Origin: Candidatus Babelota bacterium
GTDB taxonomy: Bacteria > Babelota > Babeliae > Babelales > RVW-14
Assembly (NCBI GenBank): GCA_013289515.1
Contig: JABCZU010000005.1
Location: 5,424 to 69,423, forward strand
Length of the DNA: 64,000 nucleotides
Direction of reading: 5' to 3'
Position 1 is the first letter of the stretch, and every line of letters begins with the position of its first letter. Shown here in pieces: positions 4,845 to 36,340 of this stretch. The notes under the pieces were generated by a model. The model had not been told where the DNA came from and ran no database searches. It saw nothing but the letters and a program-made list of their open reading frames with translations. Position numbers and translations under genes: made by a program.

Positions 4845-4871
4845 AACATTCCTGGACCTGTGTTGTTTGGG

Positions 4872-18787: not shown

Positions 18788-18914
18788 GATAATTTCCTAA
18801 AAATGGTTTAAGGCTAAGCGCCTGCATTGATGTAAATGATTTTCGATTTATGAGTAATGTGCCATGCGTTTGGTGCAGTGTCAACACTGTATTTAAAGGT
18901 TCAAATGCCTGTGC

Positions 18915-19850: not shown

Positions 19851-20122
19851 GCATCTCCTTAAAAAGATTATTGATGTTGTTGTTATTACTAACGCGACCT
19901 CTTCCTAGATGATAAAGCTTGAGTAACAATATCATGGCAATAGCCTTTGTCTATGCCCGTTTTTGTGTTGGCGACTGAAAGTCACGTGTTTATCGTGGTA
20001 TTGGATGACAAGAAATCTTTTCGACATTACGCCACCTGGCATAAATGATGCTTATTTGGTAAAGTCATACATAATAAAAATTAAAGAAGGAAAATAGTAA
20101 TCAATCTTCTTAATGCACAAAT

Positions 20123-21289
20123 TTGAAAGCTCTTATGATCAAAAAAATAAAAAAAGTTGTTGAAAAAAAGATCGCTCAAAAAGAGTATGCACAGGTATTG
20201 AAAGAGATTATAAAACAAATTGAGCAATCCCAAACTGAGGCTATTTCTTCGATTAACGAGGTCCTCAATAAGCGTAATTTATTGTTGGGTAAAATCATTG
20301 TTGAAAAACAAAAGAAGCATGGATGGGGTTCAAATTTTTTAGAAAATATAGCCAAGGATATGCAAAATATGGCTCCAGGAATCGAGGGTTTTTCGTCTGC
20401 CAATATTTATCGTATGAAGGCTTTCTATGAGGCTTATGGAAATTCTCGCACAGCTGTGCGAGAATTAGAAGAATTGCCCATTTTTACCATTCCGTGGGGA
20501 CACAATGTAGTACTTTTGCAGAAACTAAAAAATAATGACCAGCGTTTGTGGTATGCGCAAAAATCTATTGAATATGGTTGGAGCAGAAGCATGTTAGAAA
20601 CGTGGATCAAATCTGATCTTTATAATCGCGAGGGAAAAGCGATAACCAATTTTTCTAAGACCTTACCAAAGCCTCATTCTGATATGGCGCAGCAATCATT
20701 AAAAGATCCCTATAATTTTGATTTTTTAACATTACAAAAAGAGCACCTTGAACAGGAGTTGGAACAAGGGCTTGTCGAAAATGTCCAAAAACTATTGCTT
20801 GAGATGGGCAAAGGATTTGCACTTGTTGGTAGGCAGTATCATTTAGAAAAAGAAGGTGATGACTTATATATCGATCTTCTTTTCTATCATACAAAATTAA
20901 AATGCTACATTGTTGTTGAATTAAAAGCTCGAGCATTTGATCCGCGTGATGTTGGACAACTTAATTATTACCTATCAGCTGTTGATGATATGGTTCGTGA
21001 CTCTGATGATAAGCCTACGATTGGTCTGTTATTATGCAAAACAAAAAAAAACTACAAGGCAGAATATGCTTTACGTAATTTTACCTCGCCAATTGGTATA
21101 GCAGAATATGAAACAGCGATTTTAAAAAAGTTGTCCAAGGAACTCAAAAGCAACTTGCCAACAATTAAAGAAATAGAAACGGAGCTGGAAAGACAAGATG
21201 TTTTAGCTGATACAATGGCTTCCCCAAAAAAAACATCCAGCCTTGCTAAGGTTTCTAAAACGAAATTAAACAAACGCTCTATCAAGTAG
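20123..21289 (+). CDS. DUF1016 / YhcG-like PDDEXK nuclease family protein
   Basis: FALVGRQYHLEKEGDDLYIDLLFYHTKLKCYIVVELKARAFDPRDVGQLNYYL. An ATG at 20135 is an alternative start. Paralog at 31047..32240. Confidence 0.8.
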   Translation: MKALMIKKIKKVVEKKIAQKEYAQVLKEIIKQIEQSQTEAISSINEVLNKRNLLLGKIIVEKQKKHGWGSNFLENIAKDMQNMAPGIEGFSSANIYRMKAFYEAYGNSRTAVRELEELPIFTIPWGHNVVLLQKLKNNDQRLWYAQKSIEYGWSRSMLETWIKSDLYNREGKAITNFSKTLPKPHSDMAQQSLKDPYNFDFLTLQKEHLEQELEQGLVENVQKLLLEMGKGFALVGRQYHLEKEGDDLYIDLLFYHTKLKCYIVVELKARAFDPRDVGQLNYYLSAVDDMVRDSDDKPTIGLLLCKTKKNYKAEYALRNFTSPIGIAEYETAILKKLSKELKSNLPTIKEIETELERQDVLADTMASPKKTSSLAKVSKTKLNKRSIK

Positions 21290-21371
21290 CCTGGCTGGTA
21301 TAGCATGACTCGTATGCCTTTTTATCCCGATCATTGAGCGATAGCATGACATGTGCAAGCGCATAAAGAGG
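21287..21371. repeat. 85 bp direct repeat, copy B
   Basis: See 18921-19005. It begins at the stop codon of the DUF1016 gene. Confidence 0.85.
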
Positions 21372-21448
21372 GTAGGAACGGATGTGGTTGTGCACTGAGT
21401 AGCTTACGTTTTCCTAAAGCACGGTTCACGCGTGCTTCTCGTATAATA

Positions 21449-21532
21449 ATGGTCAAAAAAGACGGTACATTGTGACAGGTTATGGTTAAAAAAGACGGTG
21501 GTTTATTATAACTTATGGTTAAAATCGACGGT
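21449..21532. promoter_or_regulatory. Three iteron-like direct repeats, ATGGT(C/T)AAAA(AA/TC)GACGGT, spaced 33 bp apart
   Basis: Copies at 21449-21466, 21482-21499 and 21515-21532, read directly. Confidence 0.6.
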
Positions 21533-21625
21533 AGATTTGGCTTGGTCTGGTAGATTTTAGGCTAGCAGGCGGGCGAAGGCATATTTAAGAAAATGCTGTC
21601 TTTGTTATCTCACCCTAACCAAATA

Positions 21626-21675
21626 TTGACTTTACTCAATTGATTGAGTAATTTTACTTAATGCATTGAGTAAAA
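21626..21675 (+). promoter_or_regulatory. Sigma70-like promoter (TTGACT-N17-TAATTT) overlapped by operator-like palindromes
   Basis: TACTCAAT-TG-ATTGAGTA at 21633-21650 lies between the -35 and -10 boxes. A second imperfect palindrome is at 21652-21675. The site is 30 bp upstream of the 21706 ATG. Confidence 0.45.
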
Positions 21676-21705
21676 TTAAAACGAGCGTCAGATTCAGGGG
21701 TTTCC

Positions 21706-22899
21706 ATGCAAAAACGTCCGATTTTTCAATTGCTTATGGAGCGGGTTCAAGAACCACGCCGCTTTATCCAAGTTCTCCTTGGCCCCAGGCAGGTGGGAAA
21801 AACGACGTTGGCCATACAGGTGACAGAGGCGCTGGATAAGCCTTTTCATTTTATATCAGCCGATACGGCAACCCTGCAGGACCTTGCGTGGCTGCAACAA
21901 CAATGGGAAGTCGCCAGGCAAAAGGCTACCGCTGGCAAAGGGTGCATGCTGATTATTGATGAGGTGCAAAAGATTCCTCATTGGTCAGATTTGATAAAAT
22001 CACTGTGGGATGCCGACACGCGTAATGGGGTAGATGTCTCTCTGATGATTTTGGGCTCATCTCCCTGGCTGGTACAAAAGGGATTAACCGAAAGCCTGGC
22101 GGGACGCTTTGAAATTATCCCAATAACCCACTGGTCATTTAGTGAGATGCGCACGTGCTTTGACTGGTCTTTGGAACAGTATGCATATTTTGGCGGCTAT
22201 CCAGGGGCGGTGCCGCTGATTGATGAAAATGATCCTTCACGATGGATGAATTACATCAATGACTCGCTTATTGAAACAACCATTTCCCGCGATATTCTTC
22301 TGATGACGCAGGTCAATAAACCGGCACTCCTGCGCCGTCTTTTTCAATTGGGCTGTATGTATTCGGGGCAAATGCTGTCGTACACAAAAATGCTTGGCCA
22401 GCTTCAGGATTCAGGTAACACAACGACGCTTGCCCATTATTTAGACCTGTTGTCCGGTGCTGGACTGCTTGATGGCTTACAAAAGTTTGCCCAACAGGGT
22501 GTGCGACAACGGGGATCAAGCCCGAAGTTTGCTGTGTATAATACAGCGCTGATGACTGCCCAATCGCACAAGACGTTCAAGCAGGCATGCCAAGACCGTT
22601 CGTATTGGGGACGGCTGATTGAATCTACCGTTGGCGCGCATTTATTAAACAGCATACGCGGGACCGGCATTGAACTTTTTTACTGGCGTGAGGGTGATAA
22701 AGAGGTCGATTTTGTTTTAAGAAAGGGGGATGCTATCACCGCCATCGAGGTCAAAAGCGGGACAGAGAACTTTAACCACTCCGGTATCGATCTGTTTATC
22801 GATGCATTTAAACCAAGCCGTGTTTTACTGGTTGGCGATCAAGGCATACCGCTGAGTGATTTTCTGACAGCCCCCATTACTGATTTTGTTAAAACCTAA
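21706..22899 (+). CDS. AAA+ ATPase (AAA_14 plus DUF4143 family)
   Basis: Walker A motif LLGPRQVGKTTL, Walker B motif LIIDEVQ, and the size and architecture typical of COG1373. Confidence 0.75.
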   Translation: MQKRPIFQLLMERVQEPRRFIQVLLGPRQVGKTTLAIQVTEALDKPFHFISADTATLQDLAWLQQQWEVARQKATAGKGCMLIIDEVQKIPHWSDLIKSLWDADTRNGVDVSLMILGSSPWLVQKGLTESLAGRFEIIPITHWSFSEMRTCFDWSLEQYAYFGGYPGAVPLIDENDPSRWMNYINDSLIETTISRDILLMTQVNKPALLRRLFQLGCMYSGQMLSYTKMLGQLQDSGNTTTLAHYLDLLSGAGLLDGLQKFAQQGVRQRGSSPKFAVYNTALMTAQSHKTFKQACQDRSYWGRLIESTVGAHLLNSIRGTGIELFYWREGDKEVDFVLRKGDAITAIEVKSGTENFNHSGIDLFIDAFKPSRVLLVGDQGIPLSDFLTAPITDFVKT

Positions 22900-23521: not shown

Positions 23522-24795
23522 AATACCCGTTCCCAGCTGCCAACAAAAGTCTGTCGCACGCGGCCATCGAGCTGTAATGAAAAGAGGCGGTCTTGCAGAT
23601 CACTCACCTGAAATCCAGTCTTATCCAGCAGTTCGTCAAGGCTTGCTGGCTCTTGTAAGCACCCCATAAGCAGCGCAGTTGCTGGATCATCGTTATTGAT
23701 TGGCTGAGCTTGCCCTGCCACTGGACTGGCACTGGTCATATCGTGCTCATCAAAGGTTGTCCTCACCGCCGGACGAATAAGGCTACTCTGTTGATATACC
23801 GTCCCAAACTCTTCCAAAATATCGGTCACGGTATTAACTAGCTTAGCCCCCTGCTTGATAAGCTGGTGGCACCCCGCACTCAGCTCATCATAAATCATGC
23901 CTGGCACAGCAAAGACCTGACGCCCTTGCTCAAGCGCACAGCTTGCCGTTATAAGCGCGCCGCTCTTTGCCGCCGCTTGGACGACAAGGCAACCAAGGCT
24001 TAGGCCAGCTATAACGCGATTTCGTGCAGGAAAATTATGGCGTTCCGGTTCTTCCATGAGCGGGAAAATGGAAAGGACGCCGCCGCCACTTTGCACAATG
24101 CGCCTAAAGAGCGGGATGTTCACGTCCGGGTACGGATGTAACAACCCTGAGCCCAGGACTGCAACCGTTGTGCCCCCATTGTCTAGCGTAATGGTATGAG
24201 CCATCGTGTCAGCGCCGAGCGCGCCGCCGCTAACAATGCACCACTCCTGTGCCAATAAGTCGGGAATCATATTCTTAAGAACGGTGTTTGCATAATCGGT
24301 CGCCTTGCGGGAACCAACGATCCCCATGCATTTAACTGCGGGAGCCGGTAACGATCCCTCAAGGTATAAAATCAGAGGGGGGTGGGTAATCTGCTTTAAG
24401 ATTTCTGGGTAGGCAGTATCAAGGATCGTAATAATTTTAATACCATAATGCTGGGCCTTAGCAAGCTCATCATCAAGACGAACACGGCTGGCAAGCCATT
24501 CGACTATGCTTGTAGCAAGCTTTTCACTCAAGCCAACCTTTTTGACAAAGTCAGCCGATGAATAGCTGTACAAAACACTCATATCCATGAGGTGGTGGTG
24601 TTCTATAACTTCCATCCATCCTGCATGCAATACATCTGGAAATAACTCATTATGAAGGTGCCGCAACAGCTTGAATGCTGTTGCGGGCCCAATGACTTTA
24701 TTATTAAGTGAGAGGTGTAATAAAACGTCTCGGTTATTCTGCGTCAACATCCTGATCATCCATTGGTAGCATTTCGGTGTCATCCATACCATCAT
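23518..24795 (-). CDS. dprA: DNA-processing protein DprA (Smf)
   Basis: GSRKATDY...[12 protein letters not shown]...[12 protein letters not shown]...KSGALITA...GRQVFAVPG. The true start is probably an internal Met, because the ORF overlaps the gyrA 3' end. Confidence 0.85.
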
Positions 24796-27328
24796 CAGTA
24801 TCCAGCTGAGCCGGTTGATCTATAAGTGGCAACGCGTGCATCACCATGGTTTCAGTTGGCTGAGCAGCTGCCTGTTCGTTATCCTCAGAGCCATCAAAGG
24901 CTAACATGGAATTCAATACCTGACCGGCATCAAGGCGTACAAGGCGTACTCCTTTGGCTTGACGCCCCATTGTACGAATCTCTTGCGGTGACAACCTAAT
25001 GATTTTACCATTTGAGTCGATAAGCAGGATATGCGAATCATCACTAACACGCTCAAGGCCAATCACATAGCCGTTACGTGTATCGGTAGGAATGGTTCTC
25101 ACACCAAAGCCGCCACGGTGTGCCACTCTAAAGTCTGCAACACGTACGCGCTTGCCATAACCACATGAGGTAGCAAACAATAGATCACTTGTCTCTGGGA
25201 TAACCTCAAGGCCTACGACGCAATCGTTCTTGCGCAGCATTATACCGCGCACACCGGCTGCATTACGGCCCATGGCACGAATCTCGGTCTCTTTGAAATG
25301 AATGCCCTGACCGTTCTTGGTTGCAATAACAATTGAATCGGTACCTGAACTAATGGCACAGAAAGCCAATTCGTCACCTTCGTTCAGGTTCAGCGCACGA
25401 ATACCGGTGCTACGAATTTTTGCAAAATCCATGGCATCGGTCTTTTTGATAACGCCCTTACGGGTAATCATAACCAGGAATTTGCCTTCCATGCCACGGG
25501 TACAGAGCAGTTTAACAACTTTTTCATTCTCGGTAAGTTGCAATAGATTAACGATAGCACGACCTTTTGCCGTTCGTGAACCTTCAGGAATCTGAAATAC
25601 CTTTTGGCTGTAAATACGACCATGATTGGTGAAGAATAACAGTTCATCATGATTTTTTGTAACAAAGGCATCAAGCATGACATCATCAGAATCTTCCAGA
25701 TCTGCCATACCCTTTTTGCCCTTGCCGCCACGGTGTTGGACCGCATAGGTTTCGAGTATAACACGCTTGATGTACCCCTTGCGCGTCAGGGTGACCAATA
25801 CCTCTTCGTCAGGAATAAGGTCGGCTTCACTTAGGCTGTCAATGGCACCCTCAATGCGTGTACGACGAGGGTCGGCATAGGTGGCTTTAATATATTCAAG
25901 CTCTTTAACAATCTCGGCTTTAAGCACTAAGTCGTCATTCAAGATCAGCTCAAGCTTGGCAATAATCTTTTTAAGATCTTCAATTTCTGCATAAATTTTA
26001 TCGCGCTCAAGGCCTGTTAAGCGTTGCAGACGCATTTCAAGAATAGCCTTGGACTGCTCTGGTGTGATACCAAAGCGAGCATTCATCTGCCCAGCAGCCT
26101 CTTCACCAGTCTGTGATTGTTTGATAAGCGCAATAACCTCATCAATATTGCTCAGAGCAATAATCAGGCCTTCAAGAATATGCGCCCTGGCCTTACTCTT
26201 TGCCAGATCAAATTCTGTACGCTTAGTAATAATTTCACGGCGGTGCAGGAGGAAATGCTCAATCATTTCACGCAATGAGAAGAACATCGGCCTGTTTTGA
26301 TACAGGGCTAGCATCAGGATAGAGACGGATGATTGCAGCGATGTATGCTTGTAAAGCTGGTTGAGGATCACCTGTGGAATCTCACTACGACGCAGTTCAA
26401 TAACCACGCGAATACCGCGGCGGTCAGATTCGTCACGAATATTTGAGATACCATCAATGATCTTATTTTTTACCAGATCAGCAATTTTGGTAATCAGATC
26501 GGCCTTATTTACCTGGAATGGCAACTCAGTGATAATCAGCGCGGTATGGCGCTTGTTTTCTTCTACCTCTACAACACCGCGTAGAATGAGCTGTCCATGA
26601 CCGGTACGGTATGCTTTAACAATGCCAGCACGACCGCAAATAATACCGCCAGTAGGAAAGTCCGGCGCCGGTACCATTTCAAAAAGTTTGTCTTCAGATA
26701 GATTAGGATCATTGAGTATGGCCATACAGGCATCAACAATTTCACCCAAATTGTGTGGGGGTATCGAGGTGGCCATACCAACCGCAATACCGGTTGAACC
26801 GTTAATCAGCAGATTTGGAATCTTGCTTGGTAGCAGGGTTGGCTCTGTGTCCGATTCATCAAACGTAGGAACAAAAAGAACGGTATCTTTTTCGATATCA
26901 GCCAAAAGCTCACGCGCCATACGAGCCATACGGACTTCGGTATAACGCATTGCTGCTGCATTGTCCCCGTCGACCGATCCCCAGTTACCCTGGCCATCAA
27001 GGAGCGGGTAGCGCTTAGAAAATTCCTGCACCAGTCCCACCATGGTTTGGTAGATCGCGCTATCACCATGCGGGTGGTAATGACCGATCACTTCACCCAC
27101 AACGGTCGCCGATTTACGATACGGCCGTTCATGATAAAGCCCAAGATCGTGCATTGCATAAAGGATACGTCGATGCACCGGCTTTAATCCATCACGCACA
27201 TCAGGAAGCGCACGACTGACAATGACCGACATTGCATAATCAAGAAATGCTGTTTTCAGCTCTTTCTCTATTGATAACGGAGCAACCCCAAGGTGTTTCC
27301 CGTCATTACCTGTTTCTGTAATTGCCAT
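24734..27328 (-). CDS. gyrA: DNA gyrase subunit A
   Basis: [39 protein letters not shown]-terminal beta-pinwheel repeats and an acidic tail. Confidence 0.95.
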
Positions 27329-27451
27329 GCCTTACCTTCCAGGGGCCTAACGATTAGATTAATAACCAAAACTTACTATAAAATAGCGAGTATTAGCATA
27401 CGCTGCTTTACAAAATCTGGCAAGACGCGTAAACAGAATCAATTGTGAACC

Positions 27452-27479: not shown

Positions 27480-27571
27480 CTACCTTAAATTTGATTTATA
27501 GCGTTAAAATCGCTATAATCCCTGTTGCCTAAAGACATTTTTTGTATTTTTCAACACCAAGGATATCACCA

Positions 27572-28798
27572 ATGACTATTCTATCACGCTCAGGCATCAA
27601 TCGAATAAAGCTCACCCTATTTTTGGCGGCCGTAACCAACAGTTGCTCCCTGCTGGGCATGGACGCCTGGGATGAGCAAGAAACATCTTCCTCCCTACTT
27701 CGCTCTCCGAGCTTCGTAGGGCAAGCACGCTCAGCTCAAGCACACTGGAATACAACCACTGCCTTGGAGAAAGTTGGTGACCGCAACAAGAAATTTGACC
27801 AGTCCATTTTGGACGCAATTAATGCATTAGCATTAGAATGGGGCATTCAGCGGGGCATTGAATATGTGGCGGTCGATCCACACCTGCCACCAGTCCTGAG
27901 TAACATAGTATCGGACTATTCCTATAATCCCGATTTGCACCAGGACGCACAAGTGGTTTTTGATTATCTACACACAGTTCAAGGCTTTGAAATACAAGAT
28001 GGCATGCTGATTAACCGAGATGATTCTGATGGCAATACTATTCTGCACCTACTTGCTGCTGATCAGGACTCAGACAGAGCATTGCCTGTTTTGGATGCAC
28101 TCATTAGAATCATGCAGGAATATAACATTGATCCATCCCAAGGTTTGAATGCGTTCAATAGAATTATACAGGAACATACGCATAGAAACATTTTCCTCGC
28201 CGATGCTCCTACAATGGTGACACAGCTCCTTGATAATGGCACCATCAACCCAAGTGGGCCAATCAATAAAAAAGGGGAGATGCCTATAGGAATAGCCGTT
28301 AGAATAGATGAACATGGCAAGCGTAAGCATTATGCTTATGCCTCGCGTAGAGACATGATAAACAAATTAGGCGGTGCAGAAACACCTATTGCCATTGCCG
28401 TTGAATGGGGTGATGATTCTTTGATGAAGCTACTCATTCAGTACGGAGCTTATGTAGACGGTAAGTACTACCATGGCCGGACACCATTGCACAGACTCTG
28501 CTGGTACACCTATCTGACCGATCAAGAGGTAATGTCTCACGCCACCTATTTACTTACACACGGTGCCAATGTTAATGCTCGAAATGACGAGCAAGAGACC
28601 CCACTCCATCTCGCCGTCATCAGGCGCTCCATTCCGTTGGTAAAGCTCCTTTTGCAGTGGGGGGCTGACGTACATGCTGTTGATCTCAATGGTAATACAC
28701 CACTTAGTTTTGCCAGGTCAAATCTCAGCGGATGCAGCAAGGAGCCTGCCAGGGCAGAAATACTTGCCATGCTTCAAGAACACGCTGCCCAACAATAA
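27572..28798 (+). CDS. Ankyrin-repeat protein with signal peptide (family member 1)
   Basis: The N-terminus MTILSRSGINRIKLTLFLAAVTNSCSLLGMD is conserved with the 29768 and 32307 genes. ANK motifs GNTILHL, TPLHLAV and GNTPLSFA. AAGGA ribosome binding site. Confidence 0.85.
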   Translation: MTILSRSGINRIKLTLFLAAVTNSCSLLGMDAWDEQETSSSLLRSPSFVGQARSAQAHWNTTTALEKVGDRNKKFDQSILDAINALALEWGIQRGIEYVAVDPHLPPVLSNIVSDYSYNPDLHQDAQVVFDYLHTVQGFEIQDGMLINRDDSDGNTILHLLAADQDSDRALPVLDALIRIMQEYNIDPSQGLNAFNRIIQEHTHRNIFLADAPTMVTQLLDNGTINPSGPINKKGEMPIGIAVRIDEHGKRKHYAYASRRDMINKLGGAETPIAIAVEWGDDSLMKLLIQYGAYVDGKYYHGRTPLHRLCWYTYLTDQEVMSHATYLLTHGANVNARNDEQETPLHLAVIRRSIPLVKLLLQWGADVHAVDLNGNTPLSFARSNLSGCSKEPARAEILAMLQEHAAQQ

Positions 28799-28831
28799 TG
28801 GCCTGCCACCACAACAACTGCGTAAAGATTC

Positions 28832-28860
28832 TTGCCCCTAGCCCAGCTGACAATTATACT
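28832..28860 (+). promoter_or_regulatory. Conserved promoter-like TTGCCC-N17-TATACT in the ankyrin 3' flank
   Basis: The same motif in the same context occurs at 30962-30990. It precedes the cassette gene. Confidence 0.45.
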
Positions 28861-28904
28861 AGCGGGTAATAGTGATTGAATAAATAGCCACGAGAGGAAA
28901 CTAT

Positions 28905-29225
28905 ATGATAACGCCCGAAATAATTGAAGAAGTAAAAAATCGGCTGGTTAAAGTTTACAACCCGATAGAGATTTATCTTTTTGGCTCATATGCCTGGGGC
29001 CATCCTGACGACGAAAGTGATTTAGATTTGTTGGTGGTGGTACGTACATCTGATGATAAAAGTCATAAACGCAGCATCCCTGGCCGACGCGCATTATTCG
29101 AACTCGATATTCCAAAAGATTTGATGGTATACACACAAGATGAATTTAATGTGCGCTGTGCAAATCCAACATCCTTACTTTATAAGATCAAAAACAAGGG
29201 CAAGGTGCTGTATGCCTCAAGTTAA
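28905..29225 (+). CDS. Nucleotidyltransferase-domain (MNT) protein, predicted antitoxin partner of HEPN
   Basis: NTase motif LFGSYAWGHPDDESDLDLLVV. GAGAGGAAA ribosome binding site. Confidence 0.8.
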   Translation: MITPEIIEEVKNRLVKVYNPIEIYLFGSYAWGHPDDESDLDLLVVVRTSDDKSHKRSIPGRRALFELDIPKDLMVYTQDEFNVRCANPTSLLYKIKNKGKVLYASS

Positions 29226-29637
29226 TGAATGGCTTGATTGGATTGACAAAGCATCTGGTGATCTAAAATCAGCAAGAAAATTGATGAAAGATGACGATGA
29301 AACGCTTCATAATGCTGCCTATTTTACACAACAAGCAGCTGAAAAGGCACTCAAAGCTTACCTCGTCTTTAAGCATCAATCAGTTATCAGAACGCATGAT
29401 TTAGAAAAACTATTAATGAACTGCATGAAACTTGATAGCACATTTAATCAATTGCGTGCATATACCGAAATTTTATCACCATTTGCAACTTACACACGTT
29501 ATCCAGATGATCGATTTGATATAGATCGTACGGAAGCAACCGAAGCGATTAAGTATGCCGAAAAGGTCTTTAAATTTGTGAAAGCAAAAATAGATCCGGC
29601 TGAAAAAACCCCACAACTAAGTCTTTTTGATTTTTGA
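29212..29637 (+). CDS. HEPN-domain protein, predicted toxin
   Basis: HEPN pattern AAYFTQQAAEKALKAYL...IRTHDLEKL. The ATG at 29212 overlaps the MNT 3' end by 14 nt. The ORF track's upstream start at 29140 is unlikely. Confidence 0.75.
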   Translation: MPQVNEWLDWIDKASGDLKSARKLMKDDDETLHNAAYFTQQAAEKALKAYLVFKHQSVIRTHDLEKLLMNCMKLDSTFNQLRAYTEILSPFATYTRYPDDRFDIDRTEATEAIKYAEKVFKFVKAKIDPAEKTPQLSLFDF

Positions 29638-29643
29638 AAATAG

Positions 29644-29708
29644 AAGCAGAAAATACGCGTATTAAAAAAAGAGGAAAATGCCCTCTAGATCATCAAAATC
29701 ATAACGCC
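29644..29708 (+). pseudogene. Remnant of a DUF1016 gene 3' end
   Basis: AGCAGAAAAT..TCATCAAAATC(A/G)TAACGCC aligns with 32183-32244, the 3' end of the intact DUF1016 gene. The same palindrome follows it. Confidence 0.6.
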
Positions 29709-29714
29709 ATGTAA

Positions 29715-29736
29715 TTGTGCAGCAGCTGCTGCACAA
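29715..29736. repeat. 22 bp perfect palindrome TTGTGCAGCAGCTGCTGCACAA, copy 1
   Basis: Read directly. Followed by the conserved TTACACACATGAGGAAT leader of the ankyrin gene. Confidence 0.9.
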
Positions 29737-29767
29737 ATTGGTATTACACACATGAGGAATCTCATCA

Positions 29768-30955
29768 ATGACCATTCTATCACACTCTAGCATCAATCGA
29801 ATTAAAGTTGCCTTATTTATGGCGGCTCTCACGAGCAGCTGTTCACTGCTGGGCATGGACGCTTCGGAAGGGCAACAAACAGATAACGCGCAAGCCCACT
29901 GGAATACAACCACTGCCTTAGAGAAAATTGGTAAATACAACAAGGAATTTGACCAATCAATTCTTGATGCGATTAACACAATACTTTTGCCAACCGGCTC
30001 TCAGTACGAGCTGCGTGAAATATCCAATCGATACATGATACGGGATATTCATGACATGATAGTTGCTGAGTATTACGACAGTCCTGGACTGCGCGAGGAT
30101 GCACAAATTGTTTTTGATTATTTACACAATGTTCAAGGCTTTGCAGTACGCAATGGCAGGCTGGTTAACCGCACTAACCCTGATGGCCAAACTATTCTTC
30201 ATCTGATTGCTGCTGATCTGAACCTAATAAGAGCATTGCCCATTTTGGATGCGCTCATCTCCATAATGCTAGCATATGGTATCGATCCATACCAAAGCAC
30301 TAAGCTATACCAAGCAATAGCCGATAAAGATATTAAAAGAGCAACTCAGCTCCTTGCCAATGGTGCCAATCCAAATGGGCCAATTGATAAAAATGGTGAA
30401 ATGCCTATAACGATTTGGCAACGGCTAAGGATGGGGCTAACACAAACAAGAGTACTGATGCGAGACATGCTAATGAATGCATCTGGTAGATATCAGAGCG
30501 AGCCGCCCCTTGTTAAGGCGGCAAAAATGGATGATGATTCATTTTTGCAACTACTTCTTAAATATGGGGCCTATGTAGACGGTAAAGACTGTGAGGGCAA
30601 CACACCATTATGCACTGTTATCTCATTAAGCAATGGAGTCCGTCTCTTGCCCAAGGATGGGCTATTGCAAACTATGCATTTGGTTAAGTGTGGCGCCAAC
30701 ATTAATATCAGAAATAATTGCAGCGCAACGCCATTGCACCTTGCCACGAACAGACACGGTGCTTATCGATTAATTGAACTTTTGTTGCATTTTGGTGCTG
30801 ATATGAATGCACTCAATAGAGATGGTCGTACACCATTATATGGCCAGGAGTGTTATAGATTACTAAGGTATGATCCTACAAATGCGGCTATACAAATCAT
30901 GCTTCAGAATCATATTCAACAGGAACAAACTAGCGCCACCACAACCGCTACGTGA
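29768..30955 (+). CDS. Ankyrin-repeat protein with signal peptide (family member 2)
   Basis: MTILSHSSINRIKVALFMAALTSSCSLLGMD and ANK motifs. Confidence 0.85.
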   Translation: MTILSHSSINRIKVALFMAALTSSCSLLGMDASEGQQTDNAQAHWNTTTALEKIGKYNKEFDQSILDAINTILLPTGSQYELREISNRYMIRDIHDMIVAEYYDSPGLREDAQIVFDYLHNVQGFAVRNGRLVNRTNPDGQTILHLIAADLNLIRALPILDALISIMLAYGIDPYQSTKLYQAIADKDIKRATQLLANGANPNGPIDKNGEMPITIWQRLRMGLTQTRVLMRDMLMNASGRYQSEPPLVKAAKMDDDSFLQLLLKYGAYVDGKDCEGNTPLCTVISLSNGVRLLPKDGLLQTMHLVKCGANINIRNNCSATPLHLATNRHGAYRLIELLLHFGADMNALNRDGRTPLYGQECYRLLRYDPTNAAIQIMLQNHIQQEQTSATTTAT

Positions 30956-30961
30956 AGATTC

Positions 30962-30990
30962 TTGCCCGTAAGCCAGCTAGCAATTATACT
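30962..30990 (+). promoter_or_regulatory. Conserved promoter-like TTGCCC-N17-TATACT, second copy
   Basis: Same flank sequence as 28832-28860. Confidence 0.45.
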
Positions 30991-31046
30991 AGCGGGTAAT
31001 TGGTATTGGATAAATATAACCACAGAAGTATTTCGTTAAGGTTGCC

Positions 31047-32240
31047 ATGGTAAAAAAAATAAAAGCTGCTCCGAAAAAAAATAGTTCTGCATTAAAAATT
31101 AATCAAAAAGACTACGTGCACTTTCTTGAAAAACTTACGGCAGATATTGCAACAACCCAATTACAAGCAGCCTTGGCTATCACCAAAGAGCTAACGATGC
31201 TGTACTGGCGGATAGGTACCATGCTCTCAGAAAAAATAGGAGATCAAGGATGGGGCGCGAAGACCATAGATCGTCTCGCCAGTGACCTTCAGTCAGCCTT
31301 TCCGGATATATCGGGATTTTCTGTACGAAACCTTAAGTACATGCGCAAATTTGCTGACTGCTACACTGATATCAATTGTGCAGCAGCTGCTGCACAAATT
31401 CCATGGGGCCACAACATGGTCATCTTGGATAAGGTCAAGGACCTCGCACAAAGGCTTTGGTATGCACAACAAACCATTGAAAATGGCTGGAGTCGTAGCA
31501 TGCTTGAACACTGGATTGAATCAATGCTATACAGCCGAAAAGGCAAGGCGGTTACTAATTTCAAAAAGACCCTGCCGCCAACCCAATCAGATTTAGCAGA
31601 GCAAACGCTTAAGGACCCGTATAATTTCTCATTTATCGCACTGGATACCAAATTTAGAGAAAGAGAGCTTGAGCAAGGGCTTATCGATCACGTACAAAAA
31701 TTTTTAATAGAGCTTGGTGATGGGTTTGCCTTTGTTGGAAGGCAGTATCGCATTGAAATAGATGATGAAGATAATTTTATTGATCTGCTATTTTATCATA
31801 CAAAATTGCGCTGCTACATTATCGTCGAATTAAAGGCTACAGCATTTGATCCAAGAGATGCAGGGCAGATAAATTTTTACCTATCTGCCGTTGATGCTAT
31901 GTTAAAGCACCCAGCAGACAATCCATCAATAGGTATTTTGTTATGCAAAACCAAAAGTAGAATCAAAGCGGAATACGCGCTTAGAGACATAAATAAACCG
32001 ATAGGCGTAGCAAGTTATAAAACACAATTAGTAGAAAGTCTGCCTAAATCTTTTAAGGGAAGTTTGCCAACTACTGAAGAAATTGAGACTGAGCTAGAAA
32101 AACAGGAATTATTGGCTGGCAACAAGACGGTCAAAGAGCAAAAGAAAGTACCGAAGAAAGCGCCAATTAAGGCTAAAACAAAGCAGAAAATGAGCGCATC
32201 AAAGAAGAGCAAAAGGCCGTCTAAATCATCAAAATCGTAA
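31047..32240 (+). CDS. DUF1016 / YhcG-like PDDEXK nuclease family protein (second copy)
   Basis: FAFVGRQYRIEIDDEDNFIDLLFYHTKLRCYIIVELKATAFDPRDAGQINFYL. Lys-rich C-terminal tail. Confidence 0.8.
   Translation: MVKKIKAAPKKNSSALKINQKDYVHFLEKLTADIATTQLQAALAITKELTMLYWRIGTMLSEKIGDQGWGAKTIDRLASDLQSAFPDISGFSVRNLKYMRKFADCYTDINCAAAAAQIPWGHNMVILDKVKDLAQRLWYAQQTIENGWSRSMLEHWIESMLYSRKGKAVTNFKKTLPPTQSDLAEQTLKDPYNFSFIALDTKFRERELEQGLIDHVQKFLIELGDGFAFVGRQYRIEIDDEDNFIDLLFYHTKLRCYIIVELKATAFDPRDAGQINFYLSAVDAMLKHPADNPSIGILLCKTKSRIKAEYALRDINKPIGVASYKTQLVESLPKSFKGSLPTTEEIETELEKQELLAGNKTVKEQKKVPKKAPIKAKTKQKMSASKKSKRPSKSSKS
31376..31397. repeat. 22 bp palindrome, copy 2, inside the DUF1016 CDS
   Basis: Encodes NCAAAAAQ in frame. 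The paralog at 20123 has unrelated residues at this position. Confidence 0.9.
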
Positions 32241-32286
32241 CGCCATGTAATTGTGCAGCAGCTGCTGCACAATTACATGGCGTTAC
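32237..32286. repeat. 50 bp perfect palindrome containing 22 bp core copy 3
   Basis: All 25 base pairs were checked by hand (GTAACGCCATGTAATTGTGCAGCAG|CTGCTGCACAATTACATGGCGTTAC). It overlaps the DUF1016 stop codon. Confidence 0.95.
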
Positions 32287-32306
32287 ACACATGAGGAATA
32301 TTATCA

Positions 32307-33419
32307 ATGACCATTCTATCACACTCCAATACCAATCAAATAATGCTCGCCTTATTTGTGGCAGTCCTCACGAGCAGCTGTCCGCTTTTGGGTATGAATA
32401 CCTGTGAAGAGCACCAAACATCTGCCCAACTATCTCACTACACAGCCGCTGCTTTGAAAGAAATTGGTAGACGTAACAAGGAATTTGATCAATCAATTCT
32501 TGATGCGATTAACACAATACTTTTGCCAACCGGCCCTCAGTGCGAAGTACGTGAAATATCCAATCGATACATGATACGGGATATTCATGATATGATAGTT
32601 ACTGAATATTACGACAATCCTGGACTGTGCCAGGACGCACAACTTGTTTTTGATTATTTATACGATATCCAAAATTTTGCCATACGCAATGGCAGGCTGG
32701 TTAACCGCACTAACCCTGATGGCAATACTATCCTGCACCTTATCGCTGCTGATATCAACGCTGCACAGACAGAAAGAATAAAGTTCGTTTATAAGGCACT
32801 TATCAGAATTACACAAGAATATAACATTGATTCAAACCCAAGCGCCCAGCTATGCGAGGCGATAAAGGCTAAGGATCTTGCAAGAGCCACTCAGTTACTT
32901 AATGAGGGCACCGATCCAAATGGTATGGTCAATAAAAAGGGGCAGTTGCCTCCTTCCTTATATTTCATACCCAAAAGACAATACCTATCGCATTATCATC
33001 CACAAGACATGTGGCGGCAACTGACGATCAATGGGATCTTCCTGGACCTAACGAGGGTATCTGGAAACTCACCACTTACACTAGCAGATAACAATTTTGA
33101 GTTTATATCACTGCTACTCAGATATGGGGCCTATGTAGATTGTAAAAATTTTTTAAATCCTGCACTGTTACTTACCACTTTTTTTATTTACAACAACGTA
33201 AGCATCCAGGATAAGTGCCATAAAGAGTTCCCTTTACATGCGGCCTGCAAACGGAACTCTCCTGAATTTGTTGAATGTTTGTTACAACAGGGTGCTGATG
33301 TACATGCTATTGATGCTTGCGGCAGAACACCGCTCGATGTTGCTGAGGATGAGCAGAGGAACAGGCCAGGCGATCATAAGCCGGCGGCTATAGTTGCTAT
33401 GCTGAAGAACGTTGCTTAA
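32307..33419 (+). CDS. Ankyrin-repeat protein with signal peptide (family member 3)
   Basis: MTILSHSNTNQIMLALFVAVLTSSCPLLGMN and ANK motifs. Confidence 0.85.
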   Translation: MTILSHSNTNQIMLALFVAVLTSSCPLLGMNTCEEHQTSAQLSHYTAAALKEIGRRNKEFDQSILDAINTILLPTGPQCEVREISNRYMIRDIHDMIVTEYYDNPGLCQDAQLVFDYLYDIQNFAIRNGRLVNRTNPDGNTILHLIAADINAAQTERIKFVYKALIRITQEYNIDSNPSAQLCEAIKAKDLARATQLLNEGTDPNGMVNKKGQLPPSLYFIPKRQYLSHYHPQDMWRQLTINGIFLDLTRVSGNSPLTLADNNFEFISLLLRYGAYVDCKNFLNPALLLTTFFIYNNVSIQDKCHKEFPLHAACKRNSPEFVECLLQQGADVHAIDACGRTPLDVAEDEQRNRPGDHKPAAIVAMLKNVA

Positions 33420-33432
33420 CAATAAGGCTTAT

Positions 33433-33458
33433 AATTGTGCAGCAGCTGCTGCACAATT
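33433..33458. repeat. 26 bp perfect palindrome containing 22 bp core copy 4, between convergent genes
   Basis: AATTGTGCAGCAGCTGCTGCACAATT. It lies between the ankyrin stop (33419) and the pgpA stop (33463), so it could be a bidirectional terminator. Confidence 0.9.
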
Positions 33459-33462
33459 GGCA

Positions 33463-34017
33463 TTACACACATGTAAACCATGCAATAAAAACAGCCACAA
33501 GCCATAGTAATAGGCGAGTTATCACCCCGGCAACGATATCGTCACCAAGCACGCCCCAGCATCCGGGCAATCGACGGTCAATAAAGCCGATAGGGAATGG
33601 TTTAAAGATATCAAGCAACCTGAAGACAGCAAAGGCTAGGAAATACCAGCCCCATTGCTGCGGCACGGCGATGAGGGCAATCAACATGCCTACCACCTCA
33701 TCAATAACAATCCATGAGGGATCTTGGTTGACACTGTTTGGCAGGGAACGCTTGACCGCCAGTAGACCAATGGCCGTAAGGGCAAGCGCTATGCCCAGCG
33801 AATAGCCAACAGGCAGCAGAGGCGTACTGAAAACGATGAGTAGCGTCGCAAGGCTGGCGGCAGTGCCGGGGCATCCGGGGATGTATCCGATACAAAAGAA
33901 TGATGAGATAAGATTGGCTATTTTTTGTGAAGGCGCTCGATATCCTTCGAGACGGTTGCGTTGCAACCTCCTCAGGACGAGCGCCTTTTTCAAGTTTCTA
34001 AAAAAGCCCAATCCCAT
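33463..34017 (-). CDS. pgpA: Phosphatidylglycerophosphatase A
   Basis: FFCIGYIPGCPGTAASL motif, membrane helices and DIFKPFPI. The N-terminal 30 aa derive from a repeat element. Confidence 0.8.
   Translation of the reverse strand: MGLGFFRNLKKALVLRRLQRNRLEGYRAPSQKIANLISSFFCIGYIPGCPGTAASLATLLIVFSTPLLPVGYSLGIALALTAIGLLAVKRSLPNSVNQDPSWIVIDEVVGMLIALIAVPQQWGWYFLAFAVFRLLDIFKPFPIGFIDRRLPGCWGVLGDDIVAGVITRLLLWLVAVFIAWFTCV
33932..33985. repeat. Palindromic repeat element within the pgpA 5' coding region
   Basis: GGCGCTCG..ATCCTTCGAGACGGTTGCGTTGCAACCTCCTCAGGACGAGCGCC. Same family as 639-794. Confidence 0.7.
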
Positions 34018-34678: not shown

Positions 34679-36340
34679 TCACCAAAGGGCCTCCAGCGTT
34701 AAGGCAATCTGAAATGTACGCGGTACATTGCGACCAGCAAAGACATATAAACCGCCAAGCTCGACAAGAAAATGATCGGTACATTTGTAGGTATATTGAA
34801 GTCCTACCATATGGGACATGGTAGATGTATCTTTTTCCAATACATGCGTTACCAGGTTTGGCAACTTATTATCAATAGGCCTTACCGTATCCTGGCCTTT
34901 AAACTGGAACTGATAGGATAGATCAAAATAATCCATGGTCGTAAAAATACCATCAATAATATTACCAGCTTGGCAGAAAAATGATGCCCCTGGCGTAATA
35001 CGTACAGGATGGATCTGATCAGGAAAACCCCGTACCGTACTATCAGGCAACGAAAAATCGCCATCAAAAAGAAATGATTCGCCAAACAAAATATGATCTT
35101 TTGCTAGGAGTGTCGGGAGAACTTTGCCATTAAAAACATTGCCCTGTAAAACATCTCTGACTGGAACTCGATAGTTGCGGCGATCTGATAAGCTAAACGC
35201 GCCGCTAAAATGCATGTAGGGATTAAGCGCGCGGTATTTTTCCCAAAATAATGATAGATACCCCGCAAATTGCGTAAAGCCTGTAATACCAACACCAAGC
35301 GGCTGACTCCATAATTTTGAACTATCGGTCGCTCGTGACGTTGGTAATTGAACATAGACACCGGCTAGCGCCCATCTAATACCTTCCAGTGGCAACTTGG
35401 CAGTGACATAGAGCGTAGAATCACCTAAGCCAACGGTAAAGTCATTTTTTTTGAGCTTCATGCCCTTGCGTGATAAAAGATCGTCAACAAAGGCCTCAAG
35501 TGATGCATAGTGGCTAAAAAATTTATTTTGTTCGCCAACATCAAAGGTGGCTGGCACTCCATTAACAAATTGCACCGGCGGCGGGAAGGCATTTGCCGGC
35601 TGGGAAATGACACCCCCACTCCCATTATTGCCGCCAAAGGCATCGAGATTTTCCTGAATATTTTGTAGCTTTTGGCGATTTTCCTGCGTGAGATCGTTGG
35701 CAATACATAGGTGTTGTTGCTGAATCATCACCGGGACGTTGACACCAATGGTGAGCTTATTGCTGTCAAAATTACGCGCATATTGCAGCTGGGCTGAATA
35801 TTGCTCGAGGGATGCTCTGAAAATAATTGGCTGATGAGCCAGGATGCCTAAGTAGTCGTTATTTTTAACCAAAGCTGGCGTAGAAAGAACGCCGGTACCA
35901 ACCAGCTTCTCCTGATCGATAAGCTTGCTTGCAAGTAAAATATCTTGTACGCGTATGTCTGATGCGCCAAAAATTACATGGGATAGATTGGCTGTATCGC
36001 CATTATTTTTGTATCCCTGCGAGGATATTGTTGCCAAAAAGGTGCACAGCAGCATATCGCTGCCTTCAAAGTAATTGGCATAAAAGGGCCAGGCTGGAAA
36101 GAGAACTTTGTCCCTGACCTTTTGCAAGCCCTCTGTTTGTTGTCCCTTTTTGATTGGTTGCTTTGTACTTGATGCACCAAGATCTTTGTTAATGTCAGCC
36201 ATAGAGCGTAGATGAACACCGATCTCTTGCGACACTCGATCAGTAATAAGCTTGTTATTATTATCAAGTGCTATGCTCTTGCCATACAGGGTGTGTGACA
36301 ACAGCATAGCACTTGATAATAGATATATAGATACTTTCAT
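34679..36340 (-). CDS. Putative outer-membrane protein (beta-barrel candidate)
   Basis: Signal peptide MKVSIYLLSSAMLLSHTLYG, alternating beta-like C-terminal segments and a terminal aromatic residue (..LTLEALW). Family not recognised. Confidence 0.5.
   Translation of the reverse strand: MKVSIYLLSSAMLLSHTLYGKSIALDNNNKLITDRVSQEIGVHLRSMADINKDLGASSTKQPIKKGQQTEGLQKVRDKVLFPAWPFYANYFEGSDMLLCTFLATISSQGYKNNGDTANLSHVIFGASDIRVQDILLASKLIDQEKLVGTGVLSTPALVKNNDYLGILAHQPIIFRASLEQYSAQLQYARNFDSNKLTIGVNVPVMIQQQHLCIANDLTQENRQKLQNIQENLDAFGGNNGSGGVISQPANAFPPPVQFVNGVPATFDVGEQNKFFSHYASLEAFVDDLLSRKGMKLKKNDFTVGLGDSTLYVTAKLPLEGIRWALAGVYVQLPTSRATDSSKLWSQPLGVGITGFTQFAGYLSLFWEKYRALNPYMHFSGAFSLSDRRNYRVPVRDVLQGNVFNGKVLPTLLAKDHILFGESFLFDGDFSLPDSTVRGFPDQIHPVRITPGASFFCQAGNIIDGIFTTMDYFDLSYQFQFKGQDTVRPIDNKLPNLVTHVLEKDTSTMSHMVGLQYTYKCTDHFLVELGGLYVFAGRNVPRTFQIALTLEALW

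Follow-up and report, generated by a model that had tools for sequence, protein, structure and literature searches.

Tandem triplication of an ankyrin gene with a passenger DUF1016/YhcG gene in a Babelota bacterium, and a probable hairpin module of the DUF1016 family

Obligate intracellular bacteria, Dependentiae/TM6 included, amplify effector-type ankyrin genes in tandem. We analyzed a 64,000-nucleotide (nt) stretch of contig JABCZU010000005.1 of Candidatus Babelota bacterium (assembly GCA_013289515.1), hereafter the window, in which three ankyrin genes, a gene of the DUF1016/YhcG nuclease family and a minimal nucleotidyltransferase (MNT)-HEPN gene pair are interspersed with copies of a short palindrome. 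The array resembles the known amplifications in that its units lie head-to-tail with one recurrent junction, keep an N-terminal secretion signal in front of fast-diverging repeat domains and form a lineage-specific block in a syntenic region; it differs from them in carrying a passenger nuclease gene that met a separate fate in each copy and in having a nearly unique N-domain. We conclude that the array probably arose by tandem duplication followed by decay, and that the palindrome probably represents a hairpin module of DUF1016 genes.

Four other described systems invite comparison. As in the turnover of defense islands, a nuclease gene of the PADLOC candidate type PDC-S02 was replaced by an MNT-HEPN pair and the resident promoter-like flank was kept; however, the replacement is a single one with breakpoints inside the old gene. 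MNT-HEPN pairs and DUF1016 genes are typical integron cassette cargo. Short palindromes after compact open reading frames (ORFs), and palindrome-bearing direct repeats that bracket single genes at two other loci (L031 and L055), likewise recall integron cassettes, from which the array differs in having no IntI, attI, Pc or attC architecture, in units that are duplicates of one another and in a gene swap that did not occur at the palindrome. Repetitive extragenic palindromes (REP) with their REP-associated tyrosine transposases (RAYT), and IS200/IS605 elements, also tie a palindromic hairpin family to one nuclease-type gene family, with flanking copies in some genomes, whereas DUF1016 belongs to the PD-(D/E)XK and not the HUH/Y1 nucleases, its primary hairpin copy lies inside the coding sequence, and extragenic copies number 0-3 per locus and are not dispersed; no HUH/Y1 transposase gene was found among the window ORFs scanned. 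Rickettsia palindromic elements are in-frame insertions in coding sequence. Coding palindromes are also known in the mitochondria of Nematomorpha (PMC6649704). As in these two cases, the inverted repeat of DUF1016 genes is kept in an ORF and translated, and the number of modules varies (mostly one, three in Escherichia coli K-12, two in strain ETEC1734); unlike them, it constitutes no insertion relative to homologues, occupies one fixed position in one family across phyla and covaries at silent sites. The array is a clean worked example of an intracellular bacterium expanding a secreted ankyrin family while passenger defense genes turn over, useful rather than surprising, and the hairpin raises the interest of the locus above that of the array alone.

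A tandem triplication of an ankyrin gene unit

The array extends from position 27560, at an AGGA 12 nt before the start codon of the first ankyrin gene (Ank1), to position 33473, 11 nt inside the 3′ end of pgpA, and is a head-to-tail tandem triplication. Its units are defined by the following features:

27491-27519, + strand: promoter-like TTGATT-N17-TATAAT upstream of Ank1, matching 10 of 12 consensus positions; presumed promoter
27572-28798, + strand: Ank1, first unit (Pfam Ank, E value of 1.7e-21), the only copy with its own promoter block
28805-28886, + strand: first copy of the 3′ flank, the upstream region of the former DUF1016 gene, with a promoter-like TTGCCC-N17-TATACT at 28832-28860
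29744-29767, + strand: junction and Ank2 leader, TTACACACATG joined to AGGAATCTCATCA
29768-30955, + strand: Ank2, second unit (Pfam Ank_2, E value of 3.8e-16)
30935-31016, + strand: second copy of the 3′ flank, overlapping the last codons of Ank2, with the promoter-like site at 30962-30990
32283-32306, + strand: junction and Ank3 leader, with the same CATG/AGGAAT junction
32307-33419, + strand: Ank3, third unit, with one ankyrin-repeat stretch missing and no flank or nuclease gene behind it
33459-33473, + strand: right end of the unit, TGGCATTACACACATG, overlapping the last codons and the stop codon of pgpA (33463-34017, − strand); 97.6% identity to 32248-32293

The start-to-start spacing of the units is 2196 and 2539 nt (repeat families D14 and D19), and local alignments revealed homology along gene, flank, nuclease remnant and leader. 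Both internal boundaries (29754/29755 and 32293/32294) read TTACACACATG followed directly by AGGAAT. The TTACACACATG segment is identical to the last 11 nt of pgpA and at the right end of the array runs on into that gene (TAAACC), and the novel junction is missing at the outer ends. The recurrence of one novel junction argues for tandem duplication and then amplification, not for independent cassettes, and the flanks are identical because the whole unit was tandemly duplicated.

A sequence-only reading of this DNA had proposed three paralogous ankyrin genes, starting at 27572, 29768 and 32307, that share a signal peptide and a 5′ leader, with a 3′ flank containing a promoter-like motif common to the first two. 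Their paralogy was borne out, as all three ORFs match Pfam Ank families (E values of 1e-13 to 1e-21) with a mutual protein identity of 42-48%, and so was their description as an expanded, signal-peptide-bearing family, the N-terminal signal-peptide-like stretch MTILSHS.INRIK.ALF.AALTSSCSLLGM being common to the three proteins. The full leader (TTACACACATGAGGAAT..ATCAATG) turned out to be shared by Ank2 (29744-29767) and Ank3 (32283-32306) only; Ank1 shares it just from the AGGA at −12 (27560-27610 versus 29755-29807, 88% identity in local alignment), and upstream of 27560 the sequence of unit 1 is its own. The flank is indeed common to the first two units (28805-28886 versus 30935-31016, 84% identity over 82 nt in local alignment). 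Both hexamers of its TTGCCC-N17-TATACT motif lie inside fully conserved blocks and match the consensus at 9 of 12 positions, but promoter-like sites are not commoner in the region than in shuffled sequences (12 found versus 16.4 expected). As a candidate native upstream region of DUF1016 genes, the 82-nt flank had no match outside the window in a blastn comparison with all DUF1016 loci.

Among 5.8 billion clustered proteins, the N-domain of the ankyrin proteins recurred in only one other, P0004 (43% identity), a single-copy orthologue encoded at an ATP-synthase locus (L029) and thus at a different locus from that of the window. Since the block TTGATTTATAGCGTTAAAATCGCTATAATCC upstream of Ank1 is conserved upstream of P0004, Ank1 represents the ancestral copy, and the site at 27491-27519 may constitute the ancestral promoter of the ankyrin gene. 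Ank2 and Ank3 are without this promoter because the duplicated unit starts only at 27560; judging from the sequence, both could be expressed by read-through from the promoter-like site of the flank.

The divergence of the copies is uneven. Nucleotide identity between Ank2 and Ank3 reaches 86-90% in alignment columns 61-150 and falls to 39-64% in the ankyrin-repeat half, and dS is 0.34 over columns 56-180 versus about 1.6 in the C-terminal half. The dN/dS ratios of the ankyrin copies, 0.13-0.5 throughout, gave no sign of positive selection, the C-terminal half being saturated. Such mosaic divergence fits old duplicates whose junction and N-terminal region were homogenized later.

The passenger slot and its palindromes

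Behind the flank, the first two units carry different genes:

28905-29225, + strand: MNT, antitoxin-type partner (Pfam Polbeta, E value of 4e-11; NTP_transf_2, E value of 1.8e-8)
29212-29637, + strand: HEPN-domain protein, toxin-type partner (Pfam HEPN PF05168, E value of 1.5e-26), overlapping the MNT gene by 14 nt
29637-29708, + strand: remnant of a DUF1016 3′ end, the last ~22 codons (pseudogene fragment), 72 nt with indels
31047-32240, + strand: intact gene for a PD-(D/E)XK nuclease of the DUF1016/YhcG family (PADLOC candidate PDC-S02), assigned by Pfam and PADLOC

The MNT-HEPN pair of unit 1 stands between the upstream flank and the last 22 codons of a DUF1016 gene, which identifies DUF1016 as the original passenger. 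The remnant shares its first base with the end of the HEPN stop codon and is alignable with the final 22 codons of the intact gene (32175-32240). Remnant included, the slot ends (29637-29798 versus 32175-32337) share 87.5% identity over 160 nt with frame-breaking indels. Like the flank, the slot ends were compared by local alignment; a global MAFFT alignment misplaced the 5′ flank. The replaced segment spans 28887-29636 in unit 1 versus 31017-32174 in unit 2. Rather than at the palindrome, the breakpoints fall within the DUF1016 gene region, one ~7-18 nt before the MNT start and the other at codon ~376 of the nuclease gene. Residual similarity (CCAC.AGA.G) may move the left one as close as ~7 nt to the MNT ATG, and the right junction lies on an AAAA microhomology.

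The MNT protein matches PADLOC PDC-S09 weakly and carries LFGSYAWGHPDDESDLDLLV, which fits the GS...DxD pattern (MNT motif GSx10DxD); a clear Rx4-6H motif was not found in the PF05168-type HEPN protein. The latter has 117 homologues, the best 77% identical, and those with a named source are annotated as Babeliales. The MNT protein shares 75-79% amino acid identity with the products of HEPN-adjoining MNT genes at three other Babeliales loci. Taken as pairs, the relatives at three other Dependentiae-type loci keep the gene order with 67-79% amino acid and 74% nucleotide identity. Their neighbors are CPT and RecJ at one locus, a hypothetical protein and an ADP-ribosylglycohydrolase at another, and an M48 peptidase and a hypothetical protein at the third; the three loci share nothing outside the ORFs, neither conserved borders nor a palindrome. 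As the relatives share only ORFs and no flanks, the swap is best described as a single illegitimate replacement by a small roaming toxin-antitoxin pair rather than as exchange at fixed sites. By sequence, MNT-HEPN would be a free-moving pair with a putative toxin-antitoxin role, and PADLOC matches suggest that it and DUF1016 are both genes of the defense-island type.

The intact DUF1016 protein matches Pfam YhcG_C (E value of 9e-67; 224.2 bits, cut-off 32.5), DUF1016_N (E value of 1.5e-40; 138.9 bits, cut-off 32.8) and the PADLOC PDC-S02 models (E value of 1e-142). Homologues with 77-79% identity are annotated TM6 and Margulisbacteria, and those with 61-66% come from Chlamydiae and Verrucomicrobia. 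Residues D246, E261 and K263 are invariant in an 11-sequence alignment and fit the D...(D/E)xK signature; nuclease activity and a role in defense are candidate functions. Earlier work assigns DUF1016 to the PD-(D/E)XK superfamily, places its genes in conjugative elements, next to Type I restriction-modification (RM) loci and next to inversion loci, and describes their lateral transfer between intracellular bacteria (PMC1189080; PMC4316617; PMC9881135, cited jointly).

The palindrome TGTGCAGCAGCTGCTGCACA occurs four times in the window (at 29716, 31377, 32252 and 33436), all within 4 kb, with 0 copies expected from 100 shuffles. One copy follows each unit and one (31377) lies inside the DUF1016 coding sequence:

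29702-29736: palindrome P1 at the end of unit 1, core TTGTGCAGCAGCTGCTGCACAA at 29715-29736; 35 nt 100% complementary to 32251-32285
31374-31399, + strand: intragenic hairpin AATTGTGCAGCAGCTGCTGCACAAAT, encoding N-C-A-A-A-A-A-Q-I of the conserved ..QIPWGHN motif
32237-32286: palindrome P2, a 50-nt perfect palindrome centered on the copy at 32252, its left arm holding the DUF1016 stop codon
33433-33458: palindrome P3, a 26-nt perfect palindrome 13 nt past the Ank3 stop codon

P2 folds with −42.2 kcal/mol (z = −11.4) and differs from the copies of units 1 and 3 only in that its right arm is rewritten to mirror the left arm; intrastrand templated "quasipalindrome correction" may account for this extension. 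The left side TCGTAAC...TAATTG is common to the three extragenic copies of the window and to the downstream copy at L030, the locus of the closest DUF1016 homologue (79% identity), which has an internal and a downstream palindrome. This shared left flank points to the nuclease gene, rather than the ankyrin genes, as the one that brought the trailing hairpin along. At L030, a large serine recombinase gene (4168-5724; Resolvase, Recombinase and Zn_ribbon_recom domains) lies directly upstream of the DUF1016 homologue. A terminator scan weakly flagged 29715-29736 (+) and 32285-32238 (−), with the tails ATTGGTATTA and CGATTTTGAT; the internal hairpin copies have no T-run. Searches with Rfam 15 returned only sub-threshold matches of generic microRNA hairpins to the 50-nt palindrome (23-30 bits versus 68-100) and nothing at or above gathering score for the window region or for phage-like contigs that carry the palindrome.

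A palindrome at the end of every unit could also mark an attC-like recombination site, the units being palindrome-bounded cassettes and the slot content cassette traffic. Unit 3 does resemble a clean excision that left one palindrome. At L031 (TM6 GW2011_GWF2_30_66-like), imperfect direct repeats of ~65 nt flank the DUF1016 gene on both sides (5897-5936 and 7180-7219) and include the palindrome in the variant AATT(A/G)CGCAGCAGCTGCTGCGTAATT. At L055 (metagenome contig Ga0207658_10000183), palindromes at 4633-4653 and 6414-6441, both with the same ~30-nt DUF1016-derived left flank, form direct repeats around a 528-aa gene of the AAA-ATPase_like/PDDEXK_9 type that on sequence inspection resembles such a gene at L031. 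Moreover, five phage-like contigs carry the palindrome without DUF1016: in three from IMG/VR (L036, 5557-5582; L037, 8951-8976; L039, 2507-2532) it lies beside LAGLIDADG ORFs by which a phage capsid-like gene is split, ~15-20 nt ahead of the point where the capsid coding sequence continues downstream, with no group I intron called by Rfam next to these ORFs, and in the other two it lies between convergent genes. The palindromes of two unrelated contigs of this kind, L035 and L038, differ by compensatory changes that keep the pairing.

Nevertheless, we consider this explanation distinctly unlikely. The units are homologous end to end, ankyrin gene and leader included, and are thus duplicates rather than independent cassettes; the breakpoints of the MNT-HEPN swap lie inside DUF1016; the relatives of the pair have neither palindrome nor common flanks; and the upstream slot border of units 1 and 2 is without a palindrome. 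On sequence inspection only, the window palindromes are perfect ones of 22-50 nt with no GTTRRRY cores and no bulged attC architecture. Finally, there is no recombinase gene in or beside 27.3-33.5 kb, and the sole Phage_integrase-family ORF found among the subset of window ORFs scanned (8183-9124, with an Xer-type SAM-like N-domain) lies 19 kb off.

These results largely uphold what the sequence-only reading had said of the slot, namely that a toxin-antitoxin or defense-type pair (28905-29637) replaced a nuclease gene of which an intact copy survives at 31047-32240, and the alignment it called for showed flank and slot end to be similar between units 1 and 2. Two details changed: the remnant it placed at 29644-29708 (~65 bp) measures 72 nt, and the palindrome that it saw at both slot ends is present there but has four copies in the window, not two. 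Its central claim of cassette exchange between identical flanks is not supported, given the duplication of the whole unit, breakpoints inside DUF1016 and MNT-HEPN relatives without shared flanks. What is left of the cassette idea are the palindrome-bearing direct repeats around single genes at the two unrelated loci L031 and L055.

A hairpin inside DUF1016 coding sequences

Rather than belonging to the ankyrin array, the palindrome is a copy of a module that DUF1016 genes carry inside the coding sequence of their N-domain and sometimes also close by, outside the gene. To survey it, we used 80 DUF1016 loci picked by protein similarity alone. In this set, all homologues of at least 60% identity carry AATT-NN-GCAGCAGCTGCTGC-NN-AAAT at the hairpin site, and the motif that the hairpin partly encodes is the best conserved one of these proteins. 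At the silent third position of the fifth Ala codon, the base varies with the Cys/Trp codon before it (TGT..GCA, TGC..GCG, TGG..GCC), and in the variant GCAACAGCTGTTGC two amino acids are changed and pairing is kept. A second class (IVQQLVAQ) has the same 9-bp stem with the 5′ arm one nucleotide off relative to the reading frame; the hairpin is thus kept in two reading-frame registers. In a further class, the hairpin lies at the IVxQxVxQ motif, 8 codons upstream (AAATTGTCGCACA-agc-TGTGCGACAATTT, TTGTCCCACA..TGTGGGACAA and GTCTCACA..TGTGAGAC). In all classes the hairpin-coding residues align with the conserved IVxQxVxQ motif and add no extra residues; the class with the AAAAAQ/IVQQLVAQ motif is shorter, and the other is 8 aa longer downstream.

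Pairing and position are both conserved. In one sequence class (24 distinct sequences, preselected as at least 7/9 paired, with L031 the only one of the class to fail), 97% of the stem cells are paired and double compensatory changes occur in 7 of the 9 pairs; 500 shuffles gave no equal result, and sliding the partner columns left 25-56% paired. The longest perfect hairpin of the whole gene falls within the 81-nt site in 52 of 76 distinct coding sequences, with 5 further ties, and stems of at least 9 bp occur at this site in 47 of the 76 genes versus 4 of 76 anywhere else in ~1 kb. The hairpin is also present in plasmid genes of Deinococcus (10 bp), Rhodococcus (14 bp), Citrobacter IncHI (12 bp, peptide ILVSLIREL), Burkholderia (13 bp) and Simkania (7-8 bp), the plasmid genes overall spanning four phyla; it is weak or absent in the DUF1016 genes of Methylibium, Ilyobacter and Thiospirochaeta. 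This covariation and phyletic spread are plain observations, and they suggest that the hairpin is a selected nucleic-acid structure. Part of the IVxQxVxQ motif would then be constrained by nucleic acid and not by protein alone, which affects how the motif is interpreted.

E. coli K-12 yhcG contains three tandem in-frame hairpin modules (L132, 6120-6245; −61.8 kcal/mol, z = −10.1). The allele of ETEC1734 is missing exactly one 39-nt module, with two left and a hybrid hairpin, and that of TUM1881 is truncated at the end of hairpin B, beside a transposase ORF. Among 5426 complete E. coli genomes, yhcG was unmatched in 1881, and a 56-nt probe around the hairpin aligned over less than 80% of its length in 848 of the 3545 with a match; there is one hairpin locus per genome. 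No paper and no Rfam family describing the element was found in searches of the literature on DUF1016, on yhcG with nuclease or hairpin/palindrome and on the palindrome string, and the hairpin appears to be undescribed so far. DUF1016/YhcG is among the commonest uncharacterized nuclease families in defense islands, Type I RM operons, plasmids and integrative and conjugative elements, and a hairpin conserved by compensatory change across phyla of very different G+C, E. coli K-12 included, offers an experimentally tractable handle on it.

The window contains a further DUF1016 gene with a palindrome of its own:

20136-21289, + strand: second DUF1016 paralogue, 52% amino acid identity, with a 26-nt perfect palindrome AATTCTCGCACAGCTGTGCGAGAATT at 20441-20466, at the homologous position

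This gene belongs to a second accessory/defense-type cluster (17903-22899), 5-10 kb from the array, that also comprises an ankyrin-repeat gene (17903-18787, −), a Toprim-domain gene (18915-19850, −) and an AAA ATPase gene of the PADLOC PDC-S01 type (21706-22899, +; E value of 1.6e-175).

Outside the gene, hairpins of the family type lie 3-70 nt past the stop codon in the window and at L030, L118, L031, L055, L044 and L092, and upstream of the gene at L031 and at L103, where the gene is of another sequence class. The L031 gene is the only one of its class without the internal hairpin, which it has lost; upstream, at a distance of 1.6 kb, is an MNT/HepT pair. The extragenic hairpins of L118 and L055 differ from the resident internal variant and are thus more than recent copies of it. 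Related hairpins begin 3 nt past the stop codon at L044 and L092, followed by TTT. At L030, the right flank of the extragenic palindrome matches the gene's ...GHNM... coding sequence. In tests for a DUF1016-coding origin of extragenic flanks, only the left flank of the two copies at L055 and the right flank at L030 reached significance; for the palindrome flanks of the window, p values of 0.004-0.08 before correction for 36 tests are treated as not showing such an origin.

In our view, the hairpin most likely acts on the gene's own transcript; stem mismatches (A·C versus G·T) are few and do not separate RNA from DNA or one strand from the other. The main alternative, which we think unlikely, is that the hairpin is a DNA-level cis-site, not an mRNA element, that the DUF1016 nuclease binds or cuts and that drives mobility, rearrangement and the spread of extragenic copies. 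Several findings speak for it: family-type hairpins stand outside genes even where the internal variant (L118, L055) or the class (L103) differs; the hairpin GTGCAGACACTGTCTGCAC, downstream of the gene at L044, is the one that a distant Burkholderia homologue carries internally; breakpoints coincide with hairpins in the TUM1881 truncation, the 39-nt loss of ETEC1734 and the 848 E. coli genomes with short alignments; and gene fragments end at the hairpin at L055 and L030. DUF1016 genes also move between phyla and sit in Type I RM operons and mobile elements (PMC4316617; PMC9881135). However, palindromes are intrinsically fragile, and breakpoints at them need no dedicated enzyme; the stem sequences are free to vary, as would suit recognition of structure alone; in E. 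coli there is no copy outside yhcG; and the palindrome of the second paralogue has no extragenic copy in the window. A sequence search of the PDB gave no relative of DUF1016, and an AlphaFold2 model from the 11-sequence alignment (mean pLDDT 51, ~40-60 over the hairpin-encoded residues) was judged unusable. Equally doubtful, in our view, is the broader proposition that the hairpin module of DUF1016/YhcG genes, in its 1-3 in-frame copies plus extragenic ones, serves as a dedicated cis partner of the nuclease for self-recognition, for mobility or as a trigger site. If true, the palindromes of the array, the bracketed genes of L031 and L055, and the gain and loss of modules and the truncations in E. 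coli yhcG would be footprints of that activity, and the nuclease-hairpin pairing would be comparable to RAYT-REP but embedded in a gene.

Proposed history and chromosomal setting

The anatomy of the array, its duplication junctions and the direction of the replacement can be read off the DNA, and the following order of events would account for them. The founder unit would have consisted of a secreted ankyrin gene with its own promoter and a DUF1016/YhcG nuclease gene with its upstream flank, the trailing hairpin abutting the convergent end of pgpA. The segment from 12 nt before the ankyrin start codon to 11 nt into pgpA would then have been duplicated head-to-tail and amplified to three copies; the identity of the two internal junctions makes unequal crossing-over the probable mechanism. 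In unit 1, MNT-HEPN would have overwritten the nuclease ORF from just before its start to codon ~376 by illegitimate recombination, with the promoter-like flank of the nuclease gene, a 72-nt piece of its 3′ end and the hairpin left behind. Unit 2 would have retained the nuclease gene, its trailing hairpin being extended to the 50-nt perfect palindrome by intrastrand templated correction, and unit 3 would have lost flank and nuclease gene and kept the hairpin alone. The N-terminal halves and junctions of units 2 and 3 would have been partly homogenized while the ankyrin-repeat halves diverged. Our best guess for the hairpin is a cis-acting structure in its own transcript that limits or processes the expression of a potentially toxic nuclease; recombinogenic side effects, or the fragility of palindromes, could have given rise to the extragenic relic copies and the breakpoints.

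Several observations weigh against this history. No genome with a single-copy ancestral unit or a two-copy array was found, and we infer the order of events, as we do promoter use and hairpin function. The ankyrin proteins are 42-48% identical versus 85-97% for the junctions, which requires gene conversion or staggered events. The deletion in unit 3 has no recognizable breakpoint signature and ends exactly at the palindrome, and a site-specific event would look alike. With direct repeats of the palindrome around single genes at L031 and L055 and copies in five phage-like contigs without DUF1016, the palindrome may be more than a decaying gene-associated hairpin, and trailing hairpins may act as transcription terminators, at odds with read-through into Ank2 and Ank3.

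In a Babeliales (Dependentiae/TM6) chromosome, the block from 27.4 to 33.5 kb separates pgpA from gyrA as an inserted accessory island specific to this lineage. GyrA of the window (24734-27328, −) shares 66-83% identity with GyrA of metagenome-assembled genomes annotated Dependentiae/TM6/Babeliales, and none is closer. In a GyrA-anchored scan (28 loci of GTDB species genomes), the order pgsA-pgpA-gyrA-dprA-maf was contiguous in ~15 related Dependentiae loci, and the array was found in none of the 28. The end of pgpA lay 89-235 bp upstream of gyrA in seven of the eight loci examined in detail and 835 bp from it in the other (L004), whereas the window has 6.1 kb of + strand genes between its − strand gyrA and − strand pgpA. 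The gyrA promoter block conserved among the relatives (CTTGCAAGAT...TATCCTTATA) has its counterpart at 27395-27423. No relative among the GyrA-anchored and DUF1016-anchored loci had ankyrin, MNT-HEPN or DUF1016 genes at the pgpA-gyrA position, and no ankyrin gene adjoined DUF1016 at any of the 80 loci of the DUF1016-anchored metagenome scan. Since the relatives are without these genes there and some have other lineage-specific proteins, the neighborhood is variable and the block a lineage-specific insertion. The 8-nt CAATTGTG that lies at 27443-27450, on the left edge of the island, could be half of a decayed palindrome but was discarded as being at chance level.

That the array is an artefact of assembly or binning, with collapsed or chimeric repeats in a metagenome-assembled contig, is extremely improbable. 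The window matches no species representative (best GyrA identity 83%), the exact Ank2 match is absent from the contig collection, and the source is probably a metagenome assembly; however, the units differ strongly (42-48% amino acid identity, other cargo) and are not collapsed or inflated identical repeats, conserved Babeliales synteny continues on both sides of the block, and the protein database places these proteins on one 76,757-nt contig.

Other lineage-specific secreted or membrane proteins are encoded in the pgpA-gyrA gap or the adjacent omp-pgsA gap of relatives (L003, 6238-8714; L004, 4725-5294; L009, 5787-7913; L028, 8335-9501), and at L003 that zone contains a solo MNT gene and the gene of an unrelated ankyrin protein with a signal peptide. 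The pgpA-gyrA/omp-pgsA stretch of Babeliales looks like a recurrent insertion zone.

Repeats of other kinds occur elsewhere in the window. The region 37742-62974 (−) encodes four giant repeat proteins (2541, 2015, 1353 and 1392 aa) with 33/99-nt periodic repeats; each of the first three genes, in window coordinates, is followed by one for a ~350-aa protein, forming a tandem two-gene module whose last copy is without a partner. The giant proteins have essentially no Pfam match, apart from a weak one to Tis1_ImmP. A 30-nt inverted repeat (90% complementary, 3-nt spacer) lies at 36259-36321, between genes for a 553-aa outer-membrane-like and a 448-aa coiled-coil protein. G+C-rich inverted repeats stand out from the A+T-richer genome at 3085-3159, 7038-7065, 7932-8119 and 13053-13156, among them GCCCTGCGGGTTCTCCATCGGGGCGAACGG, with 100% complementary copies 10 kb apart, and these scattered repeats may constitute a REP-like family or one resembling miniature inverted-repeat transposable elements (MITEs).

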